A DNA stretch of 64,000 bases, from IMG/VR virus record IMGVR_UViG_2840842423_000001, positions 32,001-96,000 of that record; one strand, 5' to 3'. A program made the translations under genes and the position numbers. The stretch is from a virus (Duplodnaviria > Caudoviricetes). Below the pieces are notes generated by a model. It did not search any database, was not told where the DNA came from, and worked only from the letters and a program-made list of their open reading frames with translations. This document shows, piece after piece, positions 29,762 through 62,003 of this stretch (positions are counted from its first letter, which is position 1; each line of letters opens with the position of its first letter).

Positions 29762-29762
29762 A

Positions 29763-41010: not shown

Positions 41011-41038
41011 AAAGTCTATAACAAAAGGAGATATTAAA

Positions 41039-41470: not shown

Positions 41471-42960
41471 ATGATCATAGGGTATAACTTAGAGGGTAAT
41501 ATAGAGTGTTTAGAGTGTGTAAAGGGATTTATAAACGACACTTTCAACGGTAATGAGGATGATTTTTTAGACTATGTAGAAGTAAACGAGTGCGCAATAG
41601 ACATATCGGACTTGAAAGATAATGGAAATACTAAAGGATATGGGCATATTGAGTGTGTTTCTTGTAAGAAAACGATTAATTAAAACTATAAATTTATCTT
41701 GAAAGGGAGAATGTAAAATGAATAAGATCGAACAAAATAAACAAAATAAGGAAATTGTAAACGGGTATAAAGAAACCATAAAAGAGATTAAAAATAATCT
41801 GTACAATGTTACTTCTATTAAGCATAGACATTATTTAATTAATACTATAAAAGAAACAGACAACTATATAAAAAGAATGGAATACTTTGCAGTGCAGTAA
41901 AAACAACATTTTATTAAAATTTGAAAGGGTTGACTATGTATGTTGGCTATTTATGGAAAGTTAAAAAATGAAAAACGTTTCAGAATGTATAATTTGAAAG
42001 AAGATTGTTTTGTAGAAAGAAAAATTTTTGTGACACTATTCCATGAGAGTCAAAAAGACGAATTACAGGAAGACGTTGACTATATGAATAAGCATAATCC
42101 TAATTATATTTTTGAATTAAGAAAAGTGTAATTTGGTAAACTTTAATAATTCACGATAAAATCAATAATTCATGAAGGAGAATGTAGTATGGAACATATA
42201 AAAGTATTGGGTTATTTTAAAGAAAGTGAAGTGGTTTTTAATCCAGAAAATGAAAAGTTATTATATTTTGTAGCATATGAGAATAGCTACAATTATAGTC
42301 AAAGAGACCAATTGGAGGGCAAGAAGTGGGTGGAGGGTTTTAATGTTATGGATGGACATTTTCAATTAATGGATAGAAATTATCTTATCTCATGTAAGGA
42401 AATATCAAAATATGAATATCTAAAAGCTACAGAAGGATACGTGACACCAGAAGTATACTTGTAATATAATAAAATTAATGCTTTATGAGAGGAGAAAATA
42501 TAATGTATGTAAATTGGATTGATAAAGATGGTAGGCATTCAGTCAAATGTAGCGATAAGATAACAGCTAAAATTCTTTATAAACAAATAAAGGACTTCAA
42601 AGTAAAAGAAATTAGCAATGACGAATATGGATTCACAGGGTATAAAAATTCAAAATATAGGCTTTTAGCAGTATAGATAAAACCATTATTTCACATTAAA
42701 AGGAGAAGATGAAAATGAGATATATTATTGTAGATCAGTTTACAAATGATGATTATGTAAATATTTATGTTGCAGATGATAAGGAGAATGACTTTTTAGA
42801 AATAGAACAGGACAATGAACTTCCAGACGCTTACAAGCTAATAGAACAATTTAAAAAGGAGTACAACATTAATACTATTGAGTTTGTTCTATATGACAGT
42901 GGTCACGTAACACAGGATGGTAATAATACTGAAATATATAGAAGGTCAATAGAAGCTTAA
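41471..42960 (+). other. run of six small ORFs (41471, 41718, 41940, 42189, 42503, 42709)
   Basis: Each has an RBS; most are followed by a TAAAA-N6-(T/A)TTTA-type palindrome. Confidence 0.55.
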
Positions 42961-42998
42961 TTAAGATAAAACAAATATATTATTGGGAGTGAGCAAAG

Positions 42999-43143
42999 AT
43001 GGTTAAATTTATGAATACCATGGAAAGATGTTTAGATTGTGGGGGGAAAATTACAAGAAAATGCAATACCAATTAAAAGTGAAAACGGGCAGCATTTTTG
43101 TTCTAATTGGTGCAAAGATAATTGGGTGTCAGATACTAATTAA
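42999..43143 (+). pseudogene. Zn-finger ORF interrupted by +1 frameshift in a homopolymer
   Basis: Removing one base from GGGGGGAAAA (43041-43050) gives CLDCGGKLQ...HFCSNWC. Confidence 0.5.
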
Positions 43144-43822
43144 ATTTAATCATTGAAAAGGGGTAATACAAAATGAAGTTCACAAGAGAAGAAATGTTAG
43201 ATGACTTTAAAGAGTTAGAAATGGACTTAGAAGGCAGTTTAAACAATATGAGTATTTACCTTAGTATGAACGACAAAGAACTAGAAAATACTCATAAAGA
43301 TATGTTAGATGCAAAGTACATGGAAGAGTATAATTAAACAATACCATAAAGGAGTGTGTAAAAATGGAACACATACAAGCATACAATGACAACGAATTAA
43401 TATTTGAAGGTGAAGTTGGTGAATTTTTAAAGCTGCAAAACGATAGTGATGGATTTTTAGAATACATTATCGAAAGTAGAACAGATGATATTATAGAATT
43501 TCCGGAAACTATAAACGGAGATTGGAAATTTATTATTAAGTAGCTTAACCATTAAGTAAACAATATTATATAAGGAGAATCGCAATGAATAGATTTGAGT
43601 ATGAAACAGATAATGGATGGGTCGTTGGTTATTTTGATATTTATCAAGCTAGGAACGGATTTATTTATTTAGTCATGGGCAACAATTTTACAAAACTCAC
43701 ATTGGGGCAGATAGAACAATTAAACATCAATTGTTACTCACTAAAAGATTATGATCACGACGATTTTGTAAAAGCATATAATTTACCATTTTGAATTAGA
43801 CCATAGAAAGGAGGTTGTCATA

Positions 43823-44209
43823 TTGGATTTAAACAAATGGAAACAGGACATCCACGAACAATATGTTTTACTACAAACCAATTTAAAGAACATCAAACAC
43901 ACTTCATTATACACAAGTCTACAGAATACAATAAACAACAGAGATGAAACAAGCTGCACATTAAACGATTTTTTAGAGAATCATTTTCAATTATCCAATA
44001 TATACAATCAGTTCCACCAATTACAGTCAGAGCGTTTAGAATGGCTTAAGGAATACACTAATAGCAACAGTATAAAAGATAATGAATACTATAGACATAT
44101 GGCTTATAAGGTCATACATGAGGATATAGTATTATATAGTCTACAATTAATTATGAATGATCATACACCAGAGTTAACAGTACAGCAAAATAAATTGCAA
44201 CATACTTGA
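43823..44209 (+). CDS. hypothetical protein
   Basis: AAGGAGG RBS, TTG start. Confidence 0.55.
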   Translation: MDLNKWKQDIHEQYVLLQTNLKNIKHTSLYTSLQNTINNRDETSCTLNDFLENHFQLSNIYNQFHQLQSERLEWLKEYTNSNSIKDNEYYRHMAYKVIHEDIVLYSLQLIMNDHTPELTVQQNKLQHT

Positions 44210-44240
44210 TTATATTGTATAATGTCAGACAGATAGGAGA

Positions 44241-44582
44241 GTGTACAACACAGTGTATGATCAAAAGACATTAGGTTTATTAGGTGGAAAAGAACTACTG
44301 GAGCAAAAAATCAAAGCTAATAATTTTATGGGGGGTAAAATATTTACTCAACAATGGGTATTACTGGCATTCTCTTTTCACGGTTGCAAGCATACTAATT
44401 TTTTAACTATTTCAAAACGTGGAAAATATAATCTCATTGGAGAATACATTTTCATATTTTACAAAATTTCATTGTTCAGACATAAAAAGATAAAAACAAT
44501 TGAGGATGTAACAAATGATATTGTATTATCGACATTCGAGAAAGAAACAAAGTTAAAATTAGCGGATAAAGTGATCCAGTGA
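44241..44582 (+). CDS. hypothetical protein
   Basis: 113 aa ORF. Confidence 0.45.
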   Translation: MYNTVYDQKTLGLLGGKELLEQKIKANNFMGGKIFTQQWVLLAFSFHGCKHTNFLTISKRGKYNLIGEYIFIFYKISLFRHKKIKTIEDVTNDIVLSTFEKETKLKLADKVIQ

Positions 44583-44702
44583 ATAATATTGATTATCTAA
44601 TAAATAATTAATATTATATTGACATTTATATACTTTGTATGGTACAATGTAATTAAGAGTTAAAAGACACAAAGATAAATAATAAATTAGGAGTGAGTTA
44701 TT

Positions 44703-45392
44703 ATGATTAAGAAGGTAGTGTTAACAAGCAGTGGAATTAAAAACAAACAGGTTATAGAACATGAAAAAATCAACGATTTTCAAACATATTTGCTAAAGGA
44801 TCAGTTAAACGATTTAGAAAATAATTATGATAAAGAAGAACAGGAGCAGTATAAAAGACATTTATTATTATTGGTGGAAGTAGACAAACATCTATTCACT
44901 GTATGTCATTTAGATCAAATTGAAATGATAAAACAGTATGATGGCAACCAAATATTAGAAATGCTTATCAGCAATTTCAATAAAGAGTTATCGGGTAATA
45001 AAGCTATCAATTGGGGAATGGCACAATATTTAAATAAAGAAGATGAATTTAATCAAGTAAAAGAAAATAAAAGAAAAGAAAATGAACGATACAAATTAGA
45101 ACAAAAACAAATACGAGAAGAAAAAGAAAAGCAACATCAGAAAGAACGTGATAGAGAGTTAGAAACATCTTTAAATGAGTTGTTAGCAGGAAATAAAATC
45201 GATAATTATGATTTTGTTGATTTATGTGACAAATACAGTATCAAATTACCTTTACGTACTAGAGGATGGGCTTTAAAGAGTTTGAACGAAATAGGCAAAG
45301 ATCAATATTCATACGGTGGCAATCCTTCTAAAGTGGTGTTCAATTATGTTGAAAAATTAATCAACGTGGCAATGACAGAACAAGCAATCTAA
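44703..45392 (+). CDS. hypothetical protein
   Basis: 229 aa; 'IKLPLRTRGW'; after promoter cassette. Confidence 0.6.
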   Translation: MIKKVVLTSSGIKNKQVIEHEKINDFQTYLLKDQLNDLENNYDKEEQEQYKRHLLLLVEVDKHLFTVCHLDQIEMIKQYDGNQILEMLISNFNKELSGNKAINWGMAQYLNKEDEFNQVKENKRKENERYKLEQKQIREEKEKQHQKERDRELETSLNELLAGNKIDNYDFVDLCDKYSIKLPLRTRGWALKSLNEIGKDQYSYGGNPSKVVFNYVEKLINVAMTEQAI

Positions 45393-45494
45393 TTGTAATA
45401 AATAATTAATAATATATTATAGGATAACTATTGCAATGTTATCCTATAAATGGTATAATGTAGCTAAGTTAAAATTAAATGGAGGTTTTACAAA

Positions 45495-45761
45495 ATGGTA
45501 GATACTTTTAAAGTCAATCAATGTAGAAAACAGTCTGCAAAAGAAATCGGCACAGCACTCAATGAGTGTAACATGTTATTCAAATGTGATATTGAAGATC
45601 AAGCAAACAAGATTGTTTTTCATATTATAACAGATAGCGTGGATATTCAATACACAGAATTAGATAACAAAAGAATGGATAACTTTCTAAGTGTATTAAA
45701 AGATTTTGTCGTCAATAAAGAGGACATTGAAGAATTGAAAGAAGAATTGTTAGTAGTATAA
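45495..45761 (+). CDS. hypothetical protein
   Basis: GGAGG RBS. Confidence 0.55.
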   Translation: MVDTFKVNQCRKQSAKEIGTALNECNMLFKCDIEDQANKIVFHIITDSVDIQYTELDNKRMDNFLSVLKDFVVNKEDIEELKEELLVV

Positions 45762-45788
45762 TTCAATAAATAAATGGAGGTTTTACAA

Positions 45789-45968
45789 ATGGAAAAAGTA
45801 ATAATTAAAATCAAAACTGAAAATGCAGCGTTTGAAGAAGTTGGAGTAGGTAATGAATTAGCTAGAATATTAAAAGATATGGCAGATCAATTGGAAGATG
45901 CTTACAATTTTCCTAAAACATTAATGGATCTGAATGGTAATAAAGTTGGTACAGTGGAGTACGAATAA
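45789..45968 (+). CDS. hypothetical protein
   Basis: 'ENAAFE...ELARILK...DLNGNKVG'; GGAGG RBS. Confidence 0.6.
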   Translation: MEKVIIKIKTENAAFEEVGVGNELARILKDMADQLEDAYNFPKTLMDLNGNKVGTVEYE

Positions 45969-46037
45969 AATCACAGTTTTATCTGAAAATTTATGATACA
46001 ATTTAAAATAATATAAGGGATAGGGAGAGGTTTAAAA

Positions 46038-46394
46038 ATGAAAAAGAAAGTTGTCGGTTTATTAATGGTAGGATTATTATTGGGAGGTACAGTCACTTAT
46101 GCAGCAACAAATTATTATGCAGATTTAATACTCAATCAAGAGGATCAAATGATGAATGAAATAAGCGAATACTATAATCAGAATTTTAAAGAAAGAGGAG
46201 AATTACAACATCGGGATATGGTGCATTACGCAACAATGGAGAGAGAATCTTTGATGGATAGAATGAAATCAAAAATAGATGAAAAAGTAGCAAGTGATGC
46301 AGATAATCGCAGAAAAGAACATGTTAAGCATATTGATAACGCAGTAACAGGACTTGAAGAAGAATTGTTGAATTATATTAATGAATTAGAATAG
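46038..46394 (+). CDS. exported hypothetical protein
   Basis: Signal peptide MKKKVVGLLMVGLLLGGTVTYA. Confidence 0.6.
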   Translation: MKKKVVGLLMVGLLLGGTVTYAATNYYADLILNQEDQMMNEISEYYNQNFKERGELQHRDMVHYATMERESLMDRMKSKIDEKVASDADNRRKEHVKHIDNAVTGLEEELLNYINELE

Positions 46395-46582
46395 AGCAGG
46401 GTTTATACCTGCTATAAAGGTATATGAGCATATTCACCATGTATCCTTATAATAGGTATAAATAAACAACAATACAAGGAGATGATCTATAATGACAATA
46501 AATAAATAATATTATACTTTCGATAGTACAATAGATATGATACAATAAATTTACAGTAAGAAATCAATGAGGAGGTAATGAT

Positions 46583-46891
46583 ATGCTAACAATATTAGAT
46601 AGAGATATTGAGATAGTAGAAAACATATTAGGGGATCATAGTAGTTTAGAGGTGACACATTGTTATGATGACTCACGTTCAGTAGGAGACTTCAAAGAAG
46701 CCTTAGAAGAGGTTTTAAACAGTCTAACAGACAAAGAAGAATATATAGAAGAGTATAAAGAGGAAATTGCAGATCACCAACAGGATAAAAAGGAAATGTT
46801 AAAGCATATTAAACGACTTGAAAAGATGCTTAATAAGCGTGAAGTTAAATTTAAAAACTGGGAAGCTGTAGAAGATGATTTGAATTATTAG
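46583..46891 (+). CDS. hypothetical acidic coiled-coil protein
   Basis: GAGGAGG RBS. Confidence 0.55.
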   Translation: MLTILDRDIEIVENILGDHSSLEVTHCYDDSRSVGDFKEALEEVLNSLTDKEEYIEEYKEEIADHQQDKKEMLKHIKRLEKMLNKREVKFKNWEAVEDDLNY

Positions 46892-46937
46892 TACCATGGA
46901 TTGAAAATAACATATCATAATATATGGAGGTTATACA

Positions 46938-47312
46938 ATGAGAAAGCAAACTAAAAAGCAATTGCAGGATTTTAACAATGAAGTCATTGAGATATTAGAA
47001 TTTTACGGTGCGAGCAGGGTCGAGAATCCTCATACTAGAATGATCACTTATATAATTGACAGTGAGAAAATTGGTGAGTTATCAATCAAACTGGAATATG
47101 AAACATCACGTATATATACAATATATACTAAGTTTGATGATCCAGAGAAAGCTGTTAAGTTTTTCAATATATCAGTACACAATGGCAAAATGAATAGTCA
47201 TGAATATAGTCCAGAACCATGTTTAACGTTTATTGATGAGTTATTGGATAACTACAATCAGATCAATGGAATTGATTCACATGCAGCTTATTTAGAGGTT
47301 AATAGCAATTAA
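46938..47312 (+). CDS. hypothetical protein
   Basis: GGAGG RBS. Confidence 0.55.
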   Translation: MRKQTKKQLQDFNNEVIEILEFYGASRVENPHTRMITYIIDSEKIGELSIKLEYETSRIYTIYTKFDDPEKAVKFFNISVHNGKMNSHEYSPEPCLTFIDELLDNYNQINGIDSHAAYLEVNSN

Positions 47313-47567
47313 TATTAAATAGGAGGTAGTAAAAATGATTAAATTAAATGTTGGCAGCGATTATGAATTTACAGACACAGACGGAACAAAATATGAGGGA
47401 ACGCTATTTGAAAATATCAATGGTTGCTTAGGGTTTGATCTATTTGATGACAGTAGCGTAGAGAAGAGTATTGATGAAATTAAGGAAATCGAAGAAATAG
47501 CTGTATGAAACAGGAATTTTATAGTATGACTTATGATAGAATTGCAAACAAAAGGAGAGTATATTGA

Positions 47568-47804
47568 ATGGATAAAAAGGATTTACTTATGACATTAAAA
47601 ATCGAAAGAGATTATGCTAAACGTCAAGCATTGCAGGAAATAGGTATTTTAAGAGGGATTTTAGATAAGGTAGAGCAGAGGGTTGTTGATGGTAGTATTA
47701 TAGCAGATGATGGGTTGCAAGGCAATGAGTGGCGTTTATATAAAGCATTATCGAACTTAGAACAAATGAATACTCATATAAAAAATATCAATGAATTAAA
47801 ATAG
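47568..47804 (+). CDS. hypothetical protein
   Basis: AAAGGAG RBS; followed by hairpin TTAATTGGCAG...CTGCCAATTAA. Confidence 0.55.
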   Translation: MDKKDLLMTLKIERDYAKRQALQEIGILRGILDKVEQRVVDGSIIADDGLQGNEWRLYKALSNLEQMNTHIKNINELK

Positions 47805-48302
47805 AAAATAGTATTAATTGGCAGTCTGAAATACGGCTGCCAATTAAGATAAAACTATAACAGGAGTGAATTATAATATGGGAACATTTAAAGTTATCTT
47901 TACCTATGAAAATGGTCTTACACATGTATTAACTTATAAAGATGTAATAAGAGACAAAGAGAAAATTTTACATGCAGCGTTAAAAGATAATGAACATGGT
48001 TATTCAGATATTCATTCCATACAGATTATCGAATATGACTTTTAAATTACAAAAGGGTTGTATAGGTATAAAAAGGTCATTTAAGGTTGCAAAAGGAGTT
48101 GTAACAATTGATAAAAATTTATATTCACTGGCAACATAGACAGGATCAATATATAGTTATGGCTGTTGATGGTGAAACAATATTATATTCAGATATAGTA
48201 ATGAGCGAGGTTTTAGAACTCACACTATCCATGCTAAAAGAATCTTTTTCTAGCACTCATAAAGAAATTAAAGAATACAGGAGATATATTTAAAAATGAA
48301 GG

Positions 48303-49073
48303 GTGATGTTATTGATGAAAACAATTGTATTTTTAACTAGTGTATTTATAGGACTTTTTGGAGCAACGGATATTGTAAAAGCAGACGCAGAGGTAAAGGA
48401 ACAACCAACAACATTTTTTATAGTACCACACCAAGACGATGAGATGTTAACATATGGAGTTGCCATATTAAACCATACATGGCATGGAGATAATGTTCAT
48501 GTGGTATTAATGACAGATGGGGCTGCAAGTAGAGTGTATGAATTATTAAACAAAAAATTAGATAATCCATTAACTAGGCAAGAATTCAGTGAAGCAAGAT
48601 TAAAAGAATTTAAGCACAGTATGATGATTTTAGGTGTGCCAGATGAAAATATTCATGTAAAAAATTATCCAGATGGTGGTTTACAAGTAGCAGATGTTGA
48701 GAGCACAATTTTAGCAATTCAAAAAGAATATCCTAACGCAAAATTTAAAGCTATGAGTTATTTGGATGATCACAATGACCACAAAGTGTCAGGATTAGCT
48801 TTACAAAACCTGTATGACAAAGGGATAGTAAAGGATGCACGTTTCTATTTTAAACCTTCTCAATTTGGTACAGAACGTTTTAGTGGAGCAATTAAGGATA
48901 AGTACTTACCAGAGTATAAACCATTCATCCATGCAGGAGTTGAGGTTTACAAAAAGTGGCAGCCTCAAATTGGAAGATATGCAATTGGAAACACAAGTGT
49001 TGGCAAAAGTTTTGAATTGTTAAAGAATAGTCCAACTAGTATGTACCATGTTCCGGGATATAAATTGAAATGA
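48303..49073 (+). CDS. exported PIG-L/LmbE-family deacetylase
   Basis: VPHQDDE and HNDH metal motifs, ARLKEF, YPDGGL; N-terminal signal peptide ending VKA. Confidence 0.85.
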   Translation: MMLLMKTIVFLTSVFIGLFGATDIVKADAEVKEQPTTFFIVPHQDDEMLTYGVAILNHTWHGDNVHVVLMTDGAASRVYELLNKKLDNPLTRQEFSEARLKEFKHSMMILGVPDENIHVKNYPDGGLQVADVESTILAIQKEYPNAKFKAMSYLDDHNDHKVSGLALQNLYDKGIVKDARFYFKPSQFGTERFSGAIKDKYLPEYKPFIHAGVEVYKKWQPQIGRYAIGNTSVGKSFELLKNSPTSMYHVPGYKLK

Positions 49074-49205
49074 TTTAATAAATTAAAAGTATTATATTAA
49101 TAATATATAAACAAACAATTGGAACTAATCATCAAAAATTTCAATTGTTTGTAAGATCACAAATGTAGTATAATATTATTCATAATAAGAAAAGGGGAGA
49201 ATATC

Positions 49206-49772: not shown

Positions 49773-50083
49773 AACGATTAGATGGCTATGAGTAATGTGC
49801 ATCTTATATTTACGTTGCTCATAATATCACTGGCACACGGAGGGTTGTATGGAGAATAACAATAGCTACAAACTCAATTTAGCAATGGAAAAGACTGAAC
49901 GACTATTTCAGCTTAGTGTAATCAACGCATATGAATACGGGCAATTAAATCGTTATTTTATAAGTAAGTATAGCAGCACAAAACTAAGCAGAATGTTTAA
50001 GAAGGACTACAATCCTTCTTCTGATAAACTTAAAAATATTATATGTACTGTAAATAAGGAAATCATAAAAGGAGACTAACAAT

Positions 50084-50302
50084 ATGATCAATTTAAAACT
50101 AAAGGAATATCTAAAGGAAAAGAAAATTAGTATACAGTGGCTACATGAGGTGACTGGAATTAGATACGCAACGTTATATAATATGATCCACAAGAAACAC
50201 AAGAGTATAAATTTAAAATATCTATATTCTATAATGGATGCATTGAATGTTAGAGATATGAGTTTAATATTTGAAAAACAAGCAAAAGAAAGGAAGTCTT
50301 AA
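50084..50302 (+). CDS. Cro/C1-type HTH regulator
   Basis: LKEYLKEKKISIQWLHEVTGIRYATLYNM...SINLKYLYSIMDAL. Confidence 0.8.
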   Translation: MINLKLKEYLKEKKISIQWLHEVTGIRYATLYNMIHKKHKSINLKYLYSIMDALNVRDMSLIFEKQAKERKS

Positions 50303-51670: not shown

Positions 51671-51830
51671 TAACAGATAAATCAATTATATTTATCTGTT
51701 ATAGTTATACATAATAAATATTATAAAAAAATCATGTATATTGCAAATACTTCTTGACTATACTTGTATTGTATGGTATTGTTTACTTAATGAGACATAC
51801 ATAACCAATATTATAAAAGGAAGTGAGAAC

Positions 51831-51965: not shown

Positions 51966-53012
51966 ATGTTGGCTGAAAAGGTTGTACCAATTAAAAATGA
52001 AAATGATGATGGTAGTAAAAGAGGATTCAATACAGAAGTATATGATCAGATTATGAGATTCATCAGAGACTTCTCAAGATCAAGTGAGAATACTGGATCT
52101 GCATATGAAAGAGATATTAGAAACTTCTTTCTTAAAACTAGAGACAAACAAATTGAACATTTAATCAAAAATGATTTAGAATATACAATAGAAGAGTTTG
52201 AGGATTACTATGCTTATCTTATCGATGAACGTAAAGTCTCTATTGTTACAGCGAACAGATATATTGGAGCTATAAGTGAATGTATAAAACACTTAAGAAG
52301 AAGAAGGCTGATTAATGATATATCCTTTTTAGACATTAAGAAGCACTCGGGAACGACTGACAGATACGGTATACTAACACTCAATGAAGTTGAGAAGATG
52401 GCAGAATTAGCTTCTAAACAAGGCAGAGGGAACATAGGAAGAATTAAGCAGCTGATGATACTCTTTGCATTAGATACTTGCGCAAGGCGGAATGATTGTC
52501 TTACAATCAAATGGTCTAACTTTACAGTGAATGAACATGATGTAGGTATTCACATGATTGGAAAAGGTAACAAAGACTTTAAACCTTCAATTAGTAAAGA
52601 ATTTTATAATGAGTTGTTGACTCTTAAACAATCTGAGAGTGAGTTTGTTTTCAATATACATGTTAATACAGTTAATAGAATGATGGATGATTTAAGAAGA
52701 GACATGAATATCCCAAAAGAAAGAAATATTGTATTCCATTCATTTAAGAAGACTGGTGTACAGTTTATTTGGAAAAAGACTGGTGACATTAATCAAGCTA
52801 GGAAAGCAGCCAATCACAGCAGTATCAAAACAACAGATATTTATATCAATAGAGAAGAGAATTACGGTATCATGGGTGCTATTTCATCTGGATCAAGTGT
52901 TGATGAAGAATTGTTTGAGGGAGCTAGTCATGAAGAATTATTGAAAGCAATTAGAGGATTAGGAAAAGACCAACAGATGTATATTAATTTACAATTAAAC
53001 AAACAAAAATAA
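51966..53012 (+). CDS. yopP: tyrosine-recombinase-fold protein (SPbeta YopP-like)
   Basis: SAM-like N-terminus (SENTGSAYERDIRNFF), ARRND, GKGNK, FHSFKK, ANHSS..TTDIY; synteny. Confidence 0.75.
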   Translation: MLAEKVVPIKNENDDGSKRGFNTEVYDQIMRFIRDFSRSSENTGSAYERDIRNFFLKTRDKQIEHLIKNDLEYTIEEFEDYYAYLIDERKVSIVTANRYIGAISECIKHLRRRRLINDISFLDIKKHSGTTDRYGILTLNEVEKMAELASKQGRGNIGRIKQLMILFALDTCARRNDCLTIKWSNFTVNEHDVGIHMIGKGNKDFKPSISKEFYNELLTLKQSESEFVFNIHVNTVNRMMDDLRRDMNIPKERNIVFHSFKKTGVQFIWKKTGDINQARKAANHSSIKTTDIYINREENYGIMGAISSGSSVDEELFEGASHEELLKAIRGLGKDQQMYINLQLNKQK

Positions 53013-53080
53013 AATTGGTAAAACTTACCTTTACATTAATTAGATAACAGTATATTATAAAATTAGAGGAGTGTTAAATT

Positions 53081-54421
53081 GTGAAACAAGATAAAACTCG
53101 TCAAGAATTAGAAGAAAATTTGATACAACCGACTTTATCAGTGAAAAGAAAACGAAAGATTGTACAAGAGATTAAAGATAGCTTATTCAATAATCACAAA
53201 ATAATTGGTGGAAATACACAATCTTGGATCAATGATCCAGAAACTGAATTACCATTGTTAGATTGGAGAATACTATACTTATTTGCCAAACAAATCCATT
53301 CTAAAATTAATCAATCTAATATTAACCCGGATCATTTTTACACAGAGGTAGAAGCTAAGAAGGCACAACAGTATACCGGAAACTTAACAATAATGGAAGA
53401 TGTATCACTTCCTATGGTATTCAATGACGTTACAGAATTAAGATATGGAACGTATTTAACTCATATTAGCGCAAAACTACTAGCTCAAATGAGTTCAACA
53501 TTGTTAAATTATAATTTTGACATACAAAGAGAAGCGACCAAAATAACAAGGAACAATGAGACAATCAAAGAAGCTACTTTAGTTTTGAAAAACGTATTAG
53601 AAATTAAAAGTCATTTAAAACAAGATTCATTAGAATCAACAAATATTGTATTTAATGCAGCAATAGGTACAGCAGACGATGGAGATGAATTAACTTACAA
53701 TCCAGAAACTAAACAACTACAGATTAACAAGGGCACAATTATTGACATTGTAGATGGATATCACAGGTGCAAAGGAAGTGAGTTAGCTCTAAACGAAAAT
53801 CCAGATATCAATTTTAAATTTTCATTAATTATATTAAACTATACAGATGACCGAGCTGCCAATTATCAAGGGCAGTTAGCAGAAGCAACACCAATGTCTA
53901 AACCAAAGAAGAAACAACTGTCATCTAAAAGACATTCTGATGCTATTGTAAGAGAACTAATGACACAATCCGAACTAAAGGACAAAGTGGCTGTTGCCCG
54001 TGTTCCAAGTGCACGTAATAAAGAATTAGTAACTTACGATGTCTTATCTGATACCATTGATGAACAATTTAAATTGGATAGAATGATTGATGTTCATAAA
54101 GTAACTAATTATCTAAAAACTTATTTTAATATCCTGTTAGGTGAATATGCAGAACAATTCATAGAGAACCCTATTGAGTGGAAAAAGAAATCGGTCATGG
54201 TTGAGAATAACATGTTTATAGGCTATATTGTTTTAGCAAGAAGAATGTATGAACTAGGAATAGATGCAGTAAACGTTATTGATTATATAGATAGTATTGA
54301 TTTTGATAAAAATAACGAGTTGTGGCAAGATATAGGATTCTTAAATGAAGATAAAAATTTAAATAAAACTATGTCAGCGAGAAATGCTATAGAAAACTAC
54401 TTTAAACAATTGGAATTGTAA
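53081..54421 (+). CDS. yopQ: DndB/DGQHR-like protein (SPbeta YopQ-like)
   Basis: YNFDIQRE, IVDGYHR motif; between yopP and yopR. Confidence 0.7.
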   Translation: MKQDKTRQELEENLIQPTLSVKRKRKIVQEIKDSLFNNHKIIGGNTQSWINDPETELPLLDWRILYLFAKQIHSKINQSNINPDHFYTEVEAKKAQQYTGNLTIMEDVSLPMVFNDVTELRYGTYLTHISAKLLAQMSSTLLNYNFDIQREATKITRNNETIKEATLVLKNVLEIKSHLKQDSLESTNIVFNAAIGTADDGDELTYNPETKQLQINKGTIIDIVDGYHRCKGSELALNENPDINFKFSLIILNYTDDRAANYQGQLAEATPMSKPKKKQLSSKRHSDAIVRELMTQSELKDKVAVARVPSARNKELVTYDVLSDTIDEQFKLDRMIDVHKVTNYLKTYFNILLGEYAEQFIENPIEWKKKSVMVENNMFIGYIVLARRMYELGIDAVNVIDYIDSIDFDKNNELWQDIGFLNEDKNLNKTMSARNAIENYFKQLEL

Positions 54422-54440
54422 CCAAAAGGAGTGTAAGATA

Positions 54441-55409
54441 ATGGAATTGTACAATCAAAGCACTAAGATGGAGTATTTAGACACACTAGCCAGCCCAGAC
54501 GTACAAACATTACTAAGATCGGTTTTTGAGAAATCTAAGAATACAGAGATTCTTTATGACAAAGATTTACATTCATTTAGCTTGGGTCAAATTGAAGAAG
54601 TAATAAGAAACATCAATCCTGCAACATTAAACAGCGTCTCTAACACTAAGAGTAGAATTAACACTTATCTAATATGGGCAATTAACAATGGAAGAAGAGA
54701 GAACAACATTAATCCATTAGCAGGAACGACTAAAGAATGGGAAAGAAAATTTATAGATAATGTTTCACAAAGATATTTATCAGAAACAGACATGTTTGAT
54801 CTTACAGAAATGTTATTAAATGCTCAAGATCAAGCCTTGATTCAATGTATATTTGAAGGAATATCTGGACAAGCAATGTCAGAATTAATCTCTATGAACT
54901 ATCACAGAATTAATTGGAATGACAATGAAGTCACTGTTAAAGATGTTAAAACCAATAACTTCAGAACAGTCAAAGTAAGTAATAGATGTATAAAATTTAT
55001 TGAGAATGCATATAGACAACAGGTATTTACCGCAGAAGATACAGAAAATGAAAAGCAATTAGCTGAATTTGAAGGGTCAGTTTTTAAAAACACGGTATGG
55101 AAAAACACAAGAAATCATAAGGTTAGCAGAGGAAACTTAGCGAAAAGATTGTATATAATAAAAGATAAATATGAAATGGATTCTTTAACTGTAAATACAA
55201 TCAGTGAATCTGGAAGAATTAAAATGGCTGCCGATTTATATAGAGAACGAGGAAAACTTGGCAAACAAGAGTTTACTGAAATAGGAGACAGATTTAACAT
55301 TAATAAAATGACTGTAAATGGTTACTCTTATTACGATACAGCAAAAATGAAAAATTATATTGATAGTGAAAATTTAAAAGAGATGTATAATTTAGATGTA
55401 GAGTTTTAA
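54441..55409 (+). CDS. yopR: lysogeny master repressor MrpR (YopR-like, degenerate integrase fold)
   Basis: LYNQSTKMEYL...EILYDKDLHSF...LLNAQDQALIQCIFEGISG...SEL...ISESGRI. Confidence 0.75.
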   Translation: MELYNQSTKMEYLDTLASPDVQTLLRSVFEKSKNTEILYDKDLHSFSLGQIEEVIRNINPATLNSVSNTKSRINTYLIWAINNGRRENNINPLAGTTKEWERKFIDNVSQRYLSETDMFDLTEMLLNAQDQALIQCIFEGISGQAMSELISMNYHRINWNDNEVTVKDVKTNNFRTVKVSNRCIKFIENAYRQQVFTAEDTENEKQLAEFEGSVFKNTVWKNTRNHKVSRGNLAKRLYIIKDKYEMDSLTVNTISESGRIKMAADLYRERGKLGKQEFTEIGDRFNINKMTVNGYSYYDTAKMKNYIDSENLKEMYNLDVEF

Positions 55410-55609
55410 TCCCAAATTATTTTTTTGGGATACATAAAAAACAAAAAATAATATATTGATTGAGGAATACGAGTATATAAAGTGAAAGCATGTTATATAT
55501 TGGTGTGGCTTAATCAATGTGACAAAAAGTGCTAACTTTGTAATATAGCTGTATTAATTGTCACAAAAGGTATTGCCAAAGTTACCAAAAAATAGTATAC
55601 TATTTCTAC

Positions 55610-55621
55610 AAACATTTGTTC
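55610..55621. promoter_or_regulatory. possible LexA (SOS) box just downstream of a sigma-A promoter
   Basis: AAAC-ATTT-GTTC (1 mismatch to GAAC-N4-GTTC) after TTGCCA-17-TATACT. Confidence 0.4.
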
Positions 55622-55667
55622 TATAATTTGTTCGTACCAATAAAAAAGTAGAGGAGATTATTACATC

Positions 55668-55862
55668 ATGGGGACTAAAAATCGATATTATGGGGAATTG
55701 GTTTTAGGTGTTGTAGCAAAGTCAAAACTGGAACTTGAAGAATTTCAAAACGCATTTGATGAGGATGGGCTTAGAGCAGAATTGGTTTTGCAGTTGTTAG
55801 ATGGTACGAAGAGTGTTTCAGAGGTTTTGGAAATATATTCTACAAAGTGGGAATCATTCTGA
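55668..55862 (+). CDS. hypothetical protein
   Basis: GAGGAG RBS. Confidence 0.55.
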   Translation: MGTKNRYYGELVLGVVAKSKLELEEFQNAFDEDGLRAELVLQLLDGTKSVSEVLEIYSTKWESF

Positions 55863-56905
55863 TATAGTACAAAGGTAGAGAATGAATTAATATGTTATAT
55901 AATTAATGTCATCAAAGTATACATAACTCACAGTAAAATGTACTTTGCATCGGACGTAATAAAAACGCAGATCACTTTGATGACAATACTTTTAGGGAAA
56001 GATTGACTTTTAGGATATAAAGTTATATAATTTAATTAACGGATAATAAATATTATATAATGATATGTAAGTTAAGAGAATAATTAGGTGTGTCACACAG
56101 TTACTTATGGGAGTACAGTAAGTGGTAGAGATAATTGAGAATGAATTTGAGGAGGAAGGATAGTAATGAATAATGATTTAGAGCATCCAGACATAACTAA
56201 AATACGTAAAGATGGATATTTACATATGGAGAGACAAACAGATAATACAGTTGAGGAAAATGAAGAAGACGAGTGAAAGGAATATGGATATGAAATTGGA
56301 TATATTAGAGGATGATGAGTTGTTTAGACTTGCTGCACATCAAGGTGGATATAACGAATATATAGATAAAGAATGGAAGAGCAGATACAGATTAAGTTTT
56401 CCGTATCAATTAGTGGCAGATGAACAAAAGGTATATAATGCTTTATTGGATCAGAAGATTGATTACGTTGACTGTGATATAAAAATTGTGGAGCAATCTA
56501 AAATAATAAAAGGAGTGTGCTAAAATGAATATTGAATTGATTAATTATCTTGAGCAACGCATAGAACAGTCTAACAATCTTAAATTTAGCAAGGAAACAC
56601 ATAAGGCAGACCAGTTGTTTTTCAATGGTCAAGAACAGGCATTTAAAGAGATTGTAGACTATCTACAAGGAAAATACTTCATTAATGTCGAAGGAAAAAC
56701 AGATACATTCTAATTATGATACGGTATAAATTATTAATTTATTGGGAGGAATTAAAATGAAAATAAGTAGGCGAGACGTTTTTAAGATGTTAGACAGAGA
56801 TTGTGTCGATTCGCAATCGGCTGAATTAATCAAAGAATACATTAACAGAATTCTAAAACAAGTACCAAATAGCAATGTAAAATAAAGCTGTTACTTGAAG
56901 GAGAA

Positions 56906-57289
56906 GTGAAGATGAAGATAAAAACATTTGACAATGGATTAGTTGTTAAGCATCGTAAATCTGCAATTATATTTGAAAATGCAAATGGCAAAAAAGAAAA
57001 AGAAGAACATTTTTCTTATCACTTTTCAGATGAAGATTTTAAAAGGTTTATGGAGTATATTAAAGAAGCTGCCAATGAATCATGGGCTAATATAACACCT
57101 AAAGAAGCAAATAGCATGGGAACTGATTATGATGAATACTATGACCGTAGATATGATGATAATGGGTATTTAACTATCGGAGACTATGGCATCAAAATAA
57201 GAGCACCATATTGGTCGACTGATACTTTATACCAGTTCAATAAGCCTAAAATACAATCATTTATTTACGACTTACAAAAGGCTAATTAA
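56906..57289 (+). CDS. hypothetical protein
   Basis: 127 aa, AAGGAG RBS. Confidence 0.6.
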   Translation: MKMKIKTFDNGLVVKHRKSAIIFENANGKKEKEEHFSYHFSDEDFKRFMEYIKEAANESWANITPKEANSMGTDYDEYYDRRYDDNGYLTIGDYGIKIRAPYWSTDTLYQFNKPKIQSFIYDLQKAN

Positions 57290-59123
57290 AACTATTGATT
57301 TATTCAGATAGGAGGTAGGGGAATGGAGTTATTAAAGTGTGCAAAATGCGATACTGAATTGTCAGACAAGATGGAGATAGAATATAGTCGTTGGGTCACA
57401 GAATACTTTTGCAATCCAGACTGTGCTATGTCGTATTACTTTGAATATATGGGCAGTGTTCCGTTTGATGTACACGACTTACCAGAAAGCCTTAAACATA
57501 ATAAGGTGAAAGCCGTCAATGGAAAACTATATGATATCAGTTAAAACAATTATTTTATTGAGAGAAGGAGCTGAAAGATGATGAGCGAATTAAAACTAAA
57601 AACATCTATGGAAGTTGAGATTGATAAAGAAGTTCCAAATAACGAAATTCATGTGTATGACAAAAATGGAGAATTTGTTGGTAAAATTAAAAACATTAGA
57701 GAAGAAAATTCTAAATGAAAACTATAATTTAAGGAGATGAACAAATGATAAGAAAAGAGAAATCATGCGTATATTTTCTGATTAAAAATGGTACAGAAAT
57801 CAACACAGAAGTAATACATCTAAATGATGCTTCGGAATCAGATGTTATATTGAAAGCCAAAATGAAACTAACTGTAGAACTAGGAATAAATATTGACTTC
57901 ATAGCAGATAAAGTTGGCAGAAACAAAGTACACGATGGTGATTGGACGTTTGTTGATTTTGTGGAATATATAGATTAAATATTATAATATGCTGAGGTGA
58001 AAAATGATAAACCATAAATTAATCGAACAGGATATATTGGAAGGTGGCTATCCTGAGAACATTAAAGATCAAGTTGTTTCTTTAGTTAAACGGATTGAAG
58101 AATTAGAAGGAGAAAATAGATATCTGAAAAATAATAGTGATAATAGCATTGAATTTGAAACTTATAGAAAGTGTGTAAGAGGAGACATTTAACAAATCTA
58201 AACTATATATGGGAGTGATATTATGACAAACTGCAAGATATGTGGCAATCATATGGGTATGTATTTTCAATATGCAGGTAGAGTTATAGATGTTGATTGT
58301 GAGCGTTTCGGAATATATTGTAGACGGTGTGCAATGGTTGATACAGAAAAATTACAGAGCAAGCGCTTTGTTGAGTATTATAAGGATAATGCAATTTATA
58401 TGAAAGAAGGAAATTATTATCCATATTGGGAGTGTCCATATCATTTTAAAAATATTGAAGATGTAAGAGCAAGAATAGATGATTCACATGCAGCCATCGT
58501 TGATATGGAAAACCTTAAATTTGTAAACAGTTTGAAATAAATTCCAATACTTACTTAAAAGGAGAGACATGTGATGGAAGTAACATTAGAACAATTAACA
58601 ACAATTAATCCAAAGGACTTAAAAGCACCTTATTATAGAATGATGCTTAAATCAGCAATTAAACACGTAGAAGAACAAGGTGGCAAAGCATGAGTACATC
58701 CTCATGTACTGGCTGACTTTGGTATTAAATCCAATTAAATCTAAATTTATTAAGGAGGAGCTAAAATGAAAAAAGAGGTTTCTGGAAAAGCTTATACAAC
58801 TGTAATTATGGAAATTGAAATAGACGATAGTGAGTTAGAGGGTTTAGCTCAAGAGGAAATTAATGAACTGTTTGTTGAGAAAGCCTATGATAGCTTTGGT
58901 GGCATTGACAGCTTTCTTGGAAATGGAGGAGCAGATAAGCTGATAGGTGTTACTGGCATCAATGAAAGTATCTATGGTGATGGTGAAGTGGATTTTGATG
59001 AAGTAGAGAATGTTGAAGATTGAATAAAAGAATACTTTCATTGTAATTTAACAGCGACTTGGAAATATCACGGTGATTTTAGATCAAATAGAGATTTTAA
59101 ATAAATATTAGGAGATGAATTAA

Positions 59124-59528
59124 ATGGGATTAGATGTAAGTCACGATGCTTTTAATGGCGCATATTCTGCATTCAATCGTTTTAGATGGTTCGTATTAAA
59201 ATCAATTGGAGGTAGTTATCCACCACATGGAAACAAAGAACTAAATGAGGGTTATTGGTATTTCGGAGATGGGTACTCTCCAGAAACACACAAAGGATTA
59301 ACGGAATTTTTAAAACATTCAGACTGTGATGGAGAAATTAGTCCAGAAATGTGTAAGATTGTTGCTGATGAATTGGAAGAGATTATGCCACAGATCGAGA
59401 AGTTAGCAGAAACAGAAGAGTCTTATGGACATATTAAAGGAAATGGTGGATATGTAGAAGTTACTAAGAGATTTATAGAAGGATGTAGACTGGCACATGA
59501 AAGAAATGAGCCTTTAGAATTTCTTTAA
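59124..59528 (+). CDS. conserved phage hypothetical protein (HSDCDG motif)
   Basis: MGLD...GAYSAFNRFR...HSDCDGEI. Confidence 0.65.
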   Translation: MGLDVSHDAFNGAYSAFNRFRWFVLKSIGGSYPPHGNKELNEGYWYFGDGYSPETHKGLTEFLKHSDCDGEISPEMCKIVADELEEIMPQIEKLAETEESYGHIKGNGGYVEVTKRFIEGCRLAHERNEPLEFL

Positions 59529-59566
59529 AACATGCATTATAACGAGAAAAGGAGAAGTGAAGAATA

Positions 59567-59846
59567 ATGAATGAGACTAAATATCAATATTTACTATTTG
59601 CATTTGACAGTCACGAAGCAGGCGGTGGCATGGAAGATTTAATTTTTTAAATTCAATACACTAAAAGATATTATAAGTTTTGAATATCAAAATTTATATC
59701 ATTATCAATTAGTTAGTACAAGGGATTTTTCTTTTAAAGAATTTACGACTAATATTATTTATCGTGTAGGCGATGACGATTTTGAGGAAATTATCGGACG
59801 AAGACGAGTGGAATTTATTAATTGGCTGACTAGAGAATTAGTCTAA
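59567..59846 (+). pseudogene. ORF interrupted by +1 frameshift in a T6 run
   Basis: Deleting one T at 59643-59648 restores a continuous ~92-aa ORF ending at 59846. Confidence 0.5.
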
Positions 59847-61125
59847 ATAAAATCCACATTTTAAATGAACAATAGGAGGAGCTTAAATGACTAGATTTTA
59901 TGTTGAGCACAACAATAGTACAGATATGTATGAAATATTTGATGGATTTAGGGATAAGCCCATTGAGGATAACAGTGATGAAAAATATATCAGCAACAAA
60001 TGTGGTCGGTTAAATCAGGATGTTGAACAAGGTGTCATAACTGAAAATAACAACCCTGAATATTCACATGATTGGTAACACAATTAAAGCAGTCTCACAC
60101 TAAAAGGAGATGGAGAAATGTCATTATCAATAGCAATATTAGTATGGTTGATTATTGGGTTTATTGTGGGGCTATATTCAGTTAAAGACTTTGATGAACA
60201 GGATCATAGAGAATATTGGGAGTCATCTGGTCTAGGTAAAATGACTGGATATCCCAAAAAACCTAAAATGTTTGATATAGTCATCTACACCTCACTAGGG
60301 TTATACGGTCTATTCGTTGTAATTAAAAATCGATTGAAATAACAGACTTATTAAAAGGAGAATGAAAAAATGGACAGAAAATTATTTAATATAGTGCAAG
60401 GGTATAATGGTTTAGCAAATGACATTTATTTTAAGTTGATAGACGAATTAAAAATTGATATGGATGTAGCTGAAGAGTTGACACAAAAGGTGTACGACTA
60501 TAGTGACAAGGTACTTAAAACTGGCAACTATGTTGATCGAGACATGTTTGTAGATAAGTGGACTCATTTAAATAAGAAATATAATGAGTTGGAAAAATAT
60601 CATAAGTTTCATGTTATTTACGAATACGATAACGGATTAATTTTGGGTGAGACAACATCTGGGCTAGGTTATCTAATTCCAAAAGATCACTTGGAAAAAT
60701 ATTAATAAGTTGAATGTTTAGTTCAAAATAGTGAGGTGATGACAAATGTACGAACCATATTTTTTAGAATATCGAAGAGATGGAAGATTAGAACTCTATG
60801 AAACCGATGGAACTTTTTACAACCATGATTCACAAGATTTGCTAATTGCTACACTGTATGACGATGAAGAAGCAGAGAGATTGTGTAGGATTCTAAATGA
60901 TATTTACTATGGAAAGATTCAATTAAAATAATCATTTTAAAAGGATGGAAGATATGAGTGAATCTCAAGGTCTGTATAAGATGTATTTAAGAGGGTTGGT
61001 AACATTCGAACAATTGACAGGCTTTATTCATGACAAATTAATAACCGAAACGTTCGAAAGTTTGGGTGTTAGTTCTGAACACTTTAAATAAAAGAGCGAA
61101 TTTATATAAAAGGGGGGTATGTTAA

Positions 61126-61380
61126 TTGGAAATTAAATTTAAAAATGGCAGTCTCATAAATACACTAGAATCAGAAAACATAATCAGAGGTAGTCAGAGT
61201 AAAAATATTGAGTGGGTCAAAAGTGATAAGCCAATGAGTGAGTACTTTATTAAGTATATTCTTAATGGTGAAAAATTCGATTTTAATGATTTTAGAACAA
61301 AAGAAGAATTTAACAACTATGAAAAAGAATTGAATGAGTTTTTACAATCATATTTCATAATTGACAATGAAGGTATTTAA
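61126..61380 (+). CDS. small protein with terminase-like FxNGSxI...RG segment
   Basis: IKFKNGSLINTLESENIIRG; AAGGGGGG RBS. Confidence 0.5.
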   Translation: MEIKFKNGSLINTLESENIIRGSQSKNIEWVKSDKPMSEYFIKYILNGEKFDFNDFRTKEEFNNYEKELNEFLQSYFIIDNEGI

Positions 61381-61389
61381 GCAAATGAG

Positions 61390-61614
61390 GTGTTACTTAT
61401 GGAGACTGCTTCTGTTCTGACCAACTTAGAACGAAAAATAATAACTATTATTCAACACCATAATAAAAGAGGTCGATCCACATCATTAAGGGAATTAAAA
61501 ATGCGGTTGAGTCATGAAGAATCTAAGATTCAAAGTACAATCGAGGATCTAATCAAAAGAGAGTGGATCAAGATTCATGAAAATGAGTGGACAGTAGTTA
61601 AGAAGTTATTTTAA
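61390..61614 (+). CDS. winged-helix (LexA-N-like) DNA-binding protein
   Basis: LTNLERKIITII...TSLRELKMRL...IEDLIKREWI. Confidence 0.55.
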   Translation: MLLMETASVLTNLERKIITIIQHHNKRGRSTSLRELKMRLSHEESKIQSTIEDLIKREWIKIHENEWTVVKKLF

Positions 61615-62003
61615 ATTACTTTATAATTGTGGATGCCTTTACAACGAATAACAGGAGGATGAAAAATGACTTATATGAACATGAGCGACTTTGATATAGA
61701 AGTACTAGAAGTTAGACGTAAGGCAAAAGAACACTTTAATAATATGAGCAGCGAAGAATTTAGGGAGTTTATGGGTGATATGTTAATAGACAAAGAAGAT
61801 GATAACAGAGTGTTAGTTGGTAAGAATTATGAGGAGATTTTAGAAATAATAAACGAACAAGTGTATTCCGCTGATATATCTAAGTTGGCAGATATTGCGA
61901 GAGAGTTGTTGGACTGTTCTTGGTATGCTGATCATACACGATAAAAGGCTCGTTTTATTTTATTTTATAGTTGACAGAAAATGCGAAGGAGTGATTTTTT
62001 TAA

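Follow-up and report, generated by a model that had tools for sequence, protein, structure and literature searches.

Whether the joints of mosaic phage genomes form at special sequences, or form at random and are then selected, is an old open question. The modular theory of Susskind and Botstein reportedly proposed linker or boundary sequences between the modules of lambdoid phages, and such linkers are said to have been found rare later. This study examined an 18-bp palindrome, ATRAAA-N6-TTTYAT, with 12 specified positions and a fixed 6-bp spacer, the core. The palindrome recurs between small genes in a stretch of 64,000 nucleotides from a virus (Duplodnaviria; Caudoviricetes), positions 32,001 to 96,000 of IMG/VR record IMGVR_UViG_2840842423_000001. 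This whole stretch, referred to as the window, is classed as an SPbeta-like prophage. The palindromes are copies of a conserved boundary element shared by SPbeta-like phages of several host genera, and we hold, with about even confidence, that the element is a DNA-level boundary at which modules are exchanged. Like the linkers of the modular theory, it is a short conserved sequence between modules where related phages appear to exchange segments with gene order kept. Unlike them, it is one defined palindrome, found at 20–40 boundaries per genome and conserved across host genera.

The core-type sites of tyrosine recombinases, such as dif of XerCD (11+6+11), loxP and FRT, consist of inverted arms around a spacer. 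The palindrome is built in the same way, with inverted arms and an asymmetric 6-bp spacer, and together with outer arms it spans ~28 bp in the SPbeta family. Its spacer is intact in the apparent recombinants, and an Xer-like recombinase is encoded in every site-bearing genome searched. It differs in that a genome carries tens of palindromes, each with a spacer of its own, rather than one site. In addition, only 6 bp of each arm are strongly conserved, and Arg-II of the recombinase YopP is Lys in some phages. The attC sites of integrons measure 57–141 bp, contain paired boxes (R''/L'' and L'/R') and recombine at a single fixed crossover point. The palindrome resembles attC in being an imperfect palindrome at the 3' end of small genes, but the two differ in size, box structure, gene linkage and crossover position.

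Cassettes of promoter early stem-loops (PeSL) in T4-type phages are reportedly the subject of Comeau et al. 2014. A PeSL combines a sigma70-type early promoter with a terminator stem-loop, according to the available portion of Arbiol et al. 2010 (PMC2839356). Judged against that portion, PeSL and palindrome are alike in being short, conserved and intergenic and in recurring many times among small non-essential genes, and the indels and replacements that distinguish close relatives end at both, in a modular shuffling. The palindrome has neither a promoter hexamer pair nor a stable stem, but a strict 6+6+6 layout. Furthermore, PeSL recombine between different copies, whereas exchange at the palindromes apparently pairs copies that have one core and one map position in common.

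In the SPbeta group, SPBRE is the operator of the repressor MrpR (YopR, SroF), an asymmetric box of 15–26 bp that is bound by a monomer at ~10 promoters, as far as the accessible text of PMC10516654 and bioRxiv 10.1101/2025.11.27.690993 describes it. The SroF box of phi3T is asymmetric, A/T-rich and 26 bp long. SPBRE as described in that text and the palindrome are both repeated A/T-rich intergenic elements of the same phages; SPBRE is bound by a protein with a recombinase fold, and it sometimes lies beside the palindrome. They differ in that the palindrome is symmetric, has a variable core and is present in ~35 copies in the early region of SPBc2, mostly inside operons.

No description of the palindrome was found by full-text searches or in the main texts of the literature on SPbeta and its relatives, MrpR, Perkons and hybrid phages; two papers that may have a bearing, Brady et al. 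2023 (Cell Host Microbe) and the 1999 paper on the SPBc2 genome, lie outside this survey. A large share of the joints in a model family with easy genetics (SPbeta, phi3T) carries this one 18-bp palindrome, so that the question of how joints form can be tested there directly. The palindrome is an obvious candidate target for YopP, which is conserved and apparently active, or for the second repressor SroE/YopQ. The sites would also suit the engineering and swapping of modules in large Bacillus phages.

The palindrome in the window and in other phages

An earlier note on this DNA had listed 14 inverted repeats of the form TAAAA-N6-TTTTA at the ends of small genes, together with a minus-strand copy. 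All 14 were recovered, in an 18-mer register that starts one base before the coordinates of the earlier note, and the minus-strand copy is present at 6492–6509 with one mismatch. Compared with the consensus, 4 of the 14 sites have no mismatch, 6 have one, 3 have two and 1 has three. The 12-position consensus was used in place of a position weight matrix refined over wide flanks, which was over-fitted and drew in coding matches. Open reading frames (ORFs) were called with a crude caller that combined an ORF with a ribosome-binding site (RBS), and the counts of stop codon and intergenic placement given below depend on these calls. Genes of the window were annotated by PHROG and Pfam scans.

The suggested preference for a 6-bp spacer appeared as a clear peak at that spacing. 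The exact sequence TAAAA-N6-TTTTA occurs 6 times against 1.16 expected, and 6 matches were reached in 1/100 shuffles. When TAAAA-Nk-TTTTAT was searched in positions 28001–64000 with at most one mismatch, 21 matches were obtained at k=6 and 1–10 at 15 other spacings. With the consensus ATRAAA-N6-TTTYAT, the 41.5–64 kb region contains 4 exact copies (0–1 at other spacings) and 15 copies with at most one mismatch (0–7 at other spacings). The suggested enrichment was also borne out when the intergenic spacers were shuffled with stop codons and coding sequence kept: 500 shuffles gave a mean of 2.82 copies (standard deviation 0.96, maximum 8) compared with the 15 observed.

The caution that TAA stops supply part of the left arm holds for 9/14 sites, where the TAA or TGA is the upstream stop. 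It does not hold for 5/14 sites, which lie at offsets of +8, +4, +4, +322 and −5. Because the arm at these five sites is not the stop, a stop codon alone is insufficient to produce the left arm. Positions 28001–41500 carry ~30 small plus-strand genes in even more AT-rich DNA (26–29% G+C), with no exact copy and 1 copy with at most one mismatch at k=6. Since this array shows no peak, AT-richness and TAA stops are insufficient to generate the motif. The array either follows another regime of regulation or exchange, or is a segment with a different origin. Positions 1–28000 contain no exact copy and 4 with at most one mismatch, similar to other spacings.

The same element was found in other phages. 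Exact copies at N6 number 14 in SPBc2 (0–3 at other spacings), 22 in the first 50 kb of Perkons (0–2), 13 in Geobacillus virus E3 (0–3), 18 in B. subtilis phage FADO (0–2) and 5 in a Staphylococcus SPbeta-like phage (0–1). Whole records contain 38 exact copies in Perkons, 30 in FADO, 24 in E3, 21 in Tsamsa and 10 in the Staphylococcus phage. The N7 version is found 0, 1, 0 and 0 times in Perkons, FADO, Tsamsa and phage K, respectively. Four large AT-rich phages of the same host orders served as controls and contain 2 (K), 2 (Twort), 0 (SPO1) and 0 (A511) exact copies. In total, the element, with its peak at N6 only, is conserved in seven phage lineages.

Each copy is positioned between two genes, at or just past the upstream stop and before the next RBS. 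Placement was surveyed for 101 strict copies in four genomes, of which 29 contain the stop in register, 31 lie 1–30 nt past the stop and 9 fall inside coding sequence. Some copies are found in long non-coding gaps or beside convergent genes.

Homology junctions, cores and arms

The early regions of SPBc2, phi3T, Goe11, Goe12 and Goe14 were compared all against all by blastn. Matches with ≥88% identity over ≥120 bp were kept, and their ends were taken as junctions. A junction was found in 80/108 intergenic regions bearing the motif with at most one mismatch, compared with 113/461 regions without it (odds ratio 8.8). Every individual genome pair that was inspected pointed in the same direction as the pooled counts. 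For intergenic regions of ≥12 nt, the share with the motif was 41% at the borders of non-homologous segments, 25% within these segments and 12% in homologous DNA. The 150 junction ends near a motif are concentrated at its outer edges: 59 are block starts at −9 to +2 and 46 are block ends at 14 to 26. None lies within the 6-bp core and 3 lie at the end of the left arm. The expectation that breakpoints among relatives coincide with the motif therefore holds in the SPbeta family, and it also holds for one gene of the window, to which the breakpoint test there was confined.

This gene (59124–59528, plus strand) is a single-gene module encoding a 134-residue protein of phrog_11026, with 75–78% DNA identity to genes of B. 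subtilis phages. Its homology to SPbetaL2 and PK-3 begins past the 5' motif, in the start codon region, and ends at the 3' motif with the stop; the DNA beyond is unrelated. In SPbetaL2, PK-3 and the window, one motif copy lies just 5' of the RBS of this gene or its homologue and another contains its stop; the cores differ. In the window the first of these is ATCAAA-TAGAGA-TTTTAA (59083–59100, plus strand), a degenerate copy with two mismatches that was absent from the earlier list. The second is TTAAAA-CATGCA-TTATAA (59525–59542, plus strand), a weak copy with three mismatches and the stop in register, whose counterpart in SPbetaL2 and PK-3 is ATAAAA-TCTTGT-TTTTAA/T. In the SPbeta family and at this window gene, the genes lying between copies have been replaced by others, while the 18-mer and its core have kept their position.

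The arms are alike at all copies, whereas every 6-bp core within a genome is distinct. In the five SPbeta-family genomes, 176 copies were grouped by 18-mer, giving 68 groups, 40 of them with at least two members. In 24/40 multi-copy groups the flanks of one 18-mer are of at least two unrelated kinds on the left and at least two on the right; ATAAAA-AGACTG-TTTTAA, for example, has three left and four right contexts in the five genomes. The cores shared with SPBc2 (21–25 per genome) occur in identical order in every genome, with 0 breaks. No core occurs twice in one genome (36/36, 35/35, 35/35, 32/32 and 38/38 distinct), which by itself is uninformative because few chance collisions are expected, and 0/67 cores are palindromic. 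The core is a positional label, or address, and not part of a mobile gene cassette. Because it follows neither neighbour and core order is fixed, the palindrome is better described as a fixed positional site between exchangeable segments than as an ORF with an attC site. The integron-like gain, loss and shuffling of RBS+ORF units put forward in the earlier note does not fit these flanks or this order.

In phi3T, yoqG is followed at 80189 by the core AGACTG, which in SPBc2 (87599/88400) follows yoqI, two genes on. This joint has the appearance of a deletion that ran from the left arm of one site to that of another, a rare event involving the arms only.

Two cores of the window, TCACAG (45965) and GAATAC (59024), are also carried by motif copies in the SPbeta family and in the Staphylococcus SPbeta-like phage. 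The 18-mer ATAAAATCACAGTTTTAT and 3–4 flanking bases are identical between the window (45961–45986) and the Staphylococcus phage (18-mer at 7274–7291), where it lies between YorF-like and Sak4-like genes that are unrelated to the window neighbours. With one change, the window 18-mer is found upstream of yosL in SPBc2 and Goe11, with unrelated neighbours each time. In IMG/VR the 18-mer with core TCACAG was found at 55 places, compared with 5 for the reversed core, and these fall into 23 left-flank and 24 right-flank clusters. In the B. subtilis-type copies yosL stays on the right and the left neighbour changes at least six times. The window gene downstream of the TCACAG site was tested and is not a YosL homologue; for this reason the core is not simply tied to yosL. 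A comparison of six lineages gave 21 cores shared in matching orientation, against 8.35 ± 2.87 in simulation and 10 in a reverse-complement control.

The symmetry of the element extends beyond the 18-mer. The SPbeta family has weak outer arms, in which T/C/T at −4 to −2 is mirrored by A/R/A at 21–23, giving an extended element TCTnnATAAAA-N6-TTTTATnnAGA of 28 bp. While the 6-bp arms are nearly invariant, the outer positions are 45–85% conserved and lineage-specific, and the arms are shorter than the 9–13 bp that is said to be usual. The outer arms are part of the neighbours, which change: NTC-stop terminates upstream genes that are unrelated to one another, and nnAGA opens downstream leaders that are likewise unrelated. 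Because these positions belong to unrelated neighbours, their symmetry would not be due to descent but would be maintained by selection acting on every module separately. This suggests that the element is recognised by a dimeric protein with symmetry of its own. The left variant ATGAAA likewise mirrors the right variant TTTCAT. Position 3 was compared with position 16 in six lineages, and G is found with C in 15/31 copies and A with C in 28/133, which is above chance; this co-variation may represent a lineage preference (Perkons often has ATGAAA/TTTCAT) rather than pairing. The A-C combination leaves a mismatch at the variable pair in 28/164 copies. Predicted hairpins at 6 window sites have energies of −0.4 to −2.5 kcal/mol and z-scores of +0.56 to −1.78, no better than shuffles. 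No −35/−10 pair was found within the 18-mer.

Proposed mechanism and alternatives

We propose that a pair of phage genomes sharing a cell would exchange DNA within or at the 18-mer, between copies whose cores are identical, and that the copies would be recognised by a dimeric phage protein. The preferred candidate is the YopP-type tyrosine recombinase, since enzymes of this class recombine at inverted arms flanking a 6–8 bp spacer and require partners whose spacers are identical. Such a rule would account for the retention of the cores, and also for the stability of the DNA lying between copies of one genome, which is not deleted. A tyrosine recombinase is further favoured by the arm-spacer-arm layout, by a spacer that is strictly 6 bp long and is inherited intact, and by the lack of deletions between cores that differ; the architecture suggested in the earlier note fits such a site. 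Alternatively, short-homology recombination by host RecA or the phage Sak4-like YorG could act at an island that is kept for another reason. An intact spacer, and the same core with different flanks, are also expected from that route. Of the even confidence placed in an exchange boundary as a whole, roughly half falls on exchange catalysed by a recombinase, and the assignment of that step to YopP is tentative. A speculative extension, which we regard as rather doubtful, is that SPbeta-like phages carry an address-coded shuffling system, in which the Xer-like YopP acts on 20–40 sites and exchange occurs only between equivalent positions of co-resident genomes. If this were true, modules would be swapped in register and without deletions; tyrosine recombinases would then have a new use, and Botstein's linker model an enzymatic form.

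YopP of the window (51966–53012, plus strand) is a predicted tyrosine recombinase of 348 residues that scores 47.7 bits against Pfam Phage_integrase (cut-off 27.1), and it is the candidate site protein. A homologue is encoded in 6/6 other motif-rich phages searched and in 0/4 motif-poor controls. Its catalytic residues were assigned from the family alignment and the canonical motif order: R174, K200, H258, H284 and Y293 (Arg-I, Lys, His-II, His-III and Tyr) are invariant in six lineages at 26–44% identity, whose alignment contains only 23 invariant columns. A sequence search of YopP against solved structures gave no match at E ≤0.001. In Tsamsa (NC_023007.1, 155212–156189) an open frame of 342 residues matches window YopP with E 6e-32 and 28% identity. 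The available part of the Perkons paper reports no direct homologue of the Perkons orthologue, ORF64, in Tsamsa at a 30% threshold (PMC13245101). According to the same part, ORF64 has 5/5 active-site residues, and integration of Perkons is carried out by a different, serine integrase (PMC13245101). The literature examined names no DNA target for YopP or SroE/YopQ.

Several points weigh against exchange at these sites or against YopP as its agent. The pooled breakpoint statistics consist of 20 ordered pairs from 5 related genomes, and the p-values are inflated for this reason. Border intergenic regions lack the motif in 59% of cases, and 149/492 junction ends are inside genes. Part of the association reflects the type of region, as the motif is more frequent in variable regions (25% vs 12%), and junctions at the outer edges are partly forced because tight intergenic regions leave little room except beside the motif. 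Replacement of a fragment 's' distinguishes phi3Ts from phi3T, according to the part of bioRxiv 10.1101/2020.05.06.055103 that was available; the borders of this fragment were checked and are not at motifs. Since no close relative of the window phage was found in the collections searched, its breakpoint case is made largely by analogy with Bacillus subtilis phages. With only 6 bp strongly conserved, all of them A/T, the arm is short by the standard of tyrosine-recombinase sites. Arg-II of YopP is Lys in the window, SPBc2 and the Staphylococcus phage and R in the other 3 lineages, and the co-occurrence of YopP with the motif is confounded because all motif-rich phages share descent. The above-chance sharing of cores, and an 18-mer identical across three host genera, could equally reflect a regulator that reads the core. 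Finally, the case for recombination at the sites is built on comparing sequences.

Such a regulator is the basis of a different explanation, which we consider possible but doubtful. The palindrome would be the operator of a dimeric phage regulator, a repressor or silencer that controls the early arrays, for example the ParB-N/DndB-like 'second repressor' YopQ/SroE or a small helix-turn-helix (HTH) protein of the Cro/C1 type. The link of the palindrome to breakpoints would be secondary: in variable regions the sites would stand as conserved islands, and recombinants that lost them would not survive. Half-sites of 5–6 bp one helical turn apart, with mirror-symmetric variants, form the classic operator architecture of an HTH dimer. 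The window sites flank the lysogeny module (~47.6–57.2 kb), with none inside except a coding copy at 49944, and in SPBc2 and phi3T some copies adjoin an SPBRE/SroF box at promoters. Identity of the 18-mer, core included, in three host genera with unrelated neighbours, and orientation-specific sharing of cores across lineages (21 vs 8.35; 10 in the reverse-complement control), are also expected of an operator. SroE is required for lysogeny and its DNA target is given as not known in the available text of bioRxiv 10.1101/2025.11.27.690993. On the other hand, the majority of copies are internal to operons and sit immediately between a stop and the following RBS, where a promoter would not fit. 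An operator also gives no reason why junctions should be twice as frequent in motif-bearing as in other intergenic regions of the same variable segments, or why a core should persist while both neighbours change at 24/40 sites. Chromatin affinity purification sequencing (ChAP-seq) of MrpR gave 10 peaks, all at SPBRE and none at palindromes in the part of PMC10516654 available, a result that excludes MrpR only. An operator explains the deep conservation of some whole 18-mers and the lack of sites in the lysogeny module, and explains the joints less well.

The remaining explanations have much less in their favour. A signal on the polycistronic mRNA (termination-reinitiation, a processing site or a small hairpin) would account for the position of the element, always between a stop and the next RBS, for the stop in register in 29/101 strict copies and for the modest co-variation of positions 3 and 16. 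It is improbable given the marginal hairpins, the A-C mismatches, the listed sites whose arm is not the stop, and the copies in long non-coding gaps and next to convergent genes. Because the small-gene array at 28–41.5 kb and four AT-rich phages of the same host orders (0–2 exact copies) lack the element, it is not a general feature of translation either. An integron-like cassette array, in which a promoterless RBS+ORF moves with its own palindrome, as a circle, through a phage recombinase, is more improbable still. The sites are indeed found at gene ends, often with the stop codon inside them, as is reportedly common for attC; single-gene differences between relatives end at them, and the phi3T joint of yoqG to the core that follows SPBc2 yoqI resembles a deletion between the left arms of two different sites. 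Yet the core is tied to neither neighbouring gene, core order is fixed, no core is duplicated within a genome, and junctions fall at both outer edges rather than at one fixed crossover point. Moreover, the site is 18–28 bp with a single pair of arms in place of the paired R/L boxes of attC, and promoter-like sequences follow several sites. A chance product of AT-rich DNA and TAA stops can be all but dismissed. The DNA has 28–32% G+C and TAA supplies three bases of the left arm, but chance accounts neither for a peak at N6 only and the excess over the stop-keeping shuffle, nor for the missing peak at 28–41.5 kb, the near absence from K, Twort, SPO1 and A511, or conservation in seven lineages.

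Four other candidates were considered. A YonO promoter was ruled out, as the sites are found mainly in early arrays, and SPBRE was ruled out by its different sequence and symmetry; it occurs separately, adjoining some copies. A REP/BIME-type element (repetitive extragenic palindrome; bacterial interspersed mosaic element), typically a G+C-rich stable hairpin multiplied by a RAYT transposase, was rejected on account of the all-A/T arms and the lack of a stable fold. MazF is reported to degrade phage mRNAs; its usual cleavage motif does not match the palindrome.

Individual copies and neighbouring features of the window

The copies in the early array, all on the plus strand, include four perfect ones. 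ATAAAA-TCACAG-TTTTAT (45965–45982) supplies the TAA stop of 45789–45968 and is followed by the extended −10-like sequence TGATACAAT. ATGAAA-CAGGAA-TTTTAT (47505–47522) supplies the TGA stop of 47335–47508, and ATAAAA-GAATAC-TTTCAT (59024–59041) lies 4 nt past the TGA stop of 58766–59023. ATAAAA-GGCTCG-TTTTAT (61941–61958) has the stop of 61666–61944 in register and is followed by a T/A-rich run and a TTGACA −35-like hexamer. The earlier note had called the units between sites promoterless; with promoter-like sequences after several sites, this is not general.

Copies with the stop in register and one mismatch are GTAAAA-ACAACA-TTTTAT (41897–41914; TAA of 41718–41900), TTAAAA-CAATTA-TTTTAT (57541–57558; gene 57323–57544) and ATAAAA-GAGCGA-ATTTAT (61088–61105; gene 60954–61091). 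Two mismatches are found in TTAAAA-CTATAA-ATTTAT (41680–41697; TAA of 41471–41683) and TTAAAA-CTATTG-ATTTAT (57286–57303; gene 56912–57289), which are likewise in register, and in TTAAAA-TAATCA-TTTTAA (60923–60940), where the stop of 60746–60931 is inside the core and out of register with the arm.

Five further copies, each with one mismatch, are located beyond a stop or in a gap. ATAAAA-TTAATG-CTTTAT (42469–42486) lies 8 nt past a stop and ATAAAA-CCATTA-TTTCAC (42677–42694) 4 nt past a TAG stop. ATAAAA-TCCACA-TTTTAA (59847–59864) is located 22 nt 5' of the start of 59887, in a gap of 358 nt with no called gene. Two are additions to the earlier list: ATAAAA-TCAATA-ATTCAT (42156–42173), 28 nt past the stop of 41940–42131 and just 5' of the RBS of 42189, and ATAAAA-CAAATA-TATTAT (42966–42983), 9 nt past the stop of 42709–42960. 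The minus-strand copy, ATTAAA-CACAAG-TTTTAT when read on the plus strand, lies in the late region between genes 5988–6425 and 6513–6836. The copies at 44851 and 49944, inside coding sequence, and at 61659, overlapping a start codon, are probably due to chance.

A megablast of the window against the phage collection found nothing close at the DNA level, only a 2% match, and an IMG/VR search with the window YopQ found no relative of the window phage. Psychrobacillus phage Perkons is the nearest sequenced phage, with 42% identity in YopQ. The first part of the window (1–19 kb) contains minus-strand late genes, including portal, protease and tail fibre, and from 19.6 kb onward a plus-strand array of helicases and small genes follows. 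Downstream of yopP are a YopQ/SroE-like protein of 446 residues (53081–54421, plus strand; Pfam DndB), which is the rival candidate for binding the palindrome, and a MrpR/YopR/SroF-like repressor with a recombinase fold (54441–55409, plus strand; Pfam MrpR_N_CB and MrpR_C_cat), whose known operator, SPBRE, is a different sequence.

A conserved promoter region was found in four copies (36857–36968, 39769–39880, 41322–41433 and 46447–46558) in the longer gaps of the plus-strand array. The copies share the box ATAAATAAWTAATATTATACTTG, followed ~15 nt later by an extended −10 (TGGTATAAT or TGATACAAT), and a fifth, partial copy is present in inverted orientation at 49167. This region may be the window's counterpart of the SPBRE/MrpR operator-promoter unit.

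Beside the late genes, on the minus strand, 14250–17021 encodes a 924-residue protein that matches phrog_8308 (E 3.7e-167), an uncharacterised PHROG family. Judging from size and position only, it is probably a YonO-type single-chain RNA polymerase. In the early array, 48306–49073 encodes a 255-residue protein of the PIG-L family (GlcNAc-PI de-N-acetylase-like), an unusual enzyme for a phage early region. A repeat of 12–14 bases, AAACAATATTAT(A), is located between late genes or just 3' of them in the minus-strand region (2298–2311, 9303–9316 and 17045–17059), with two further copies in the early array (43557–43570 and 48175–48188).

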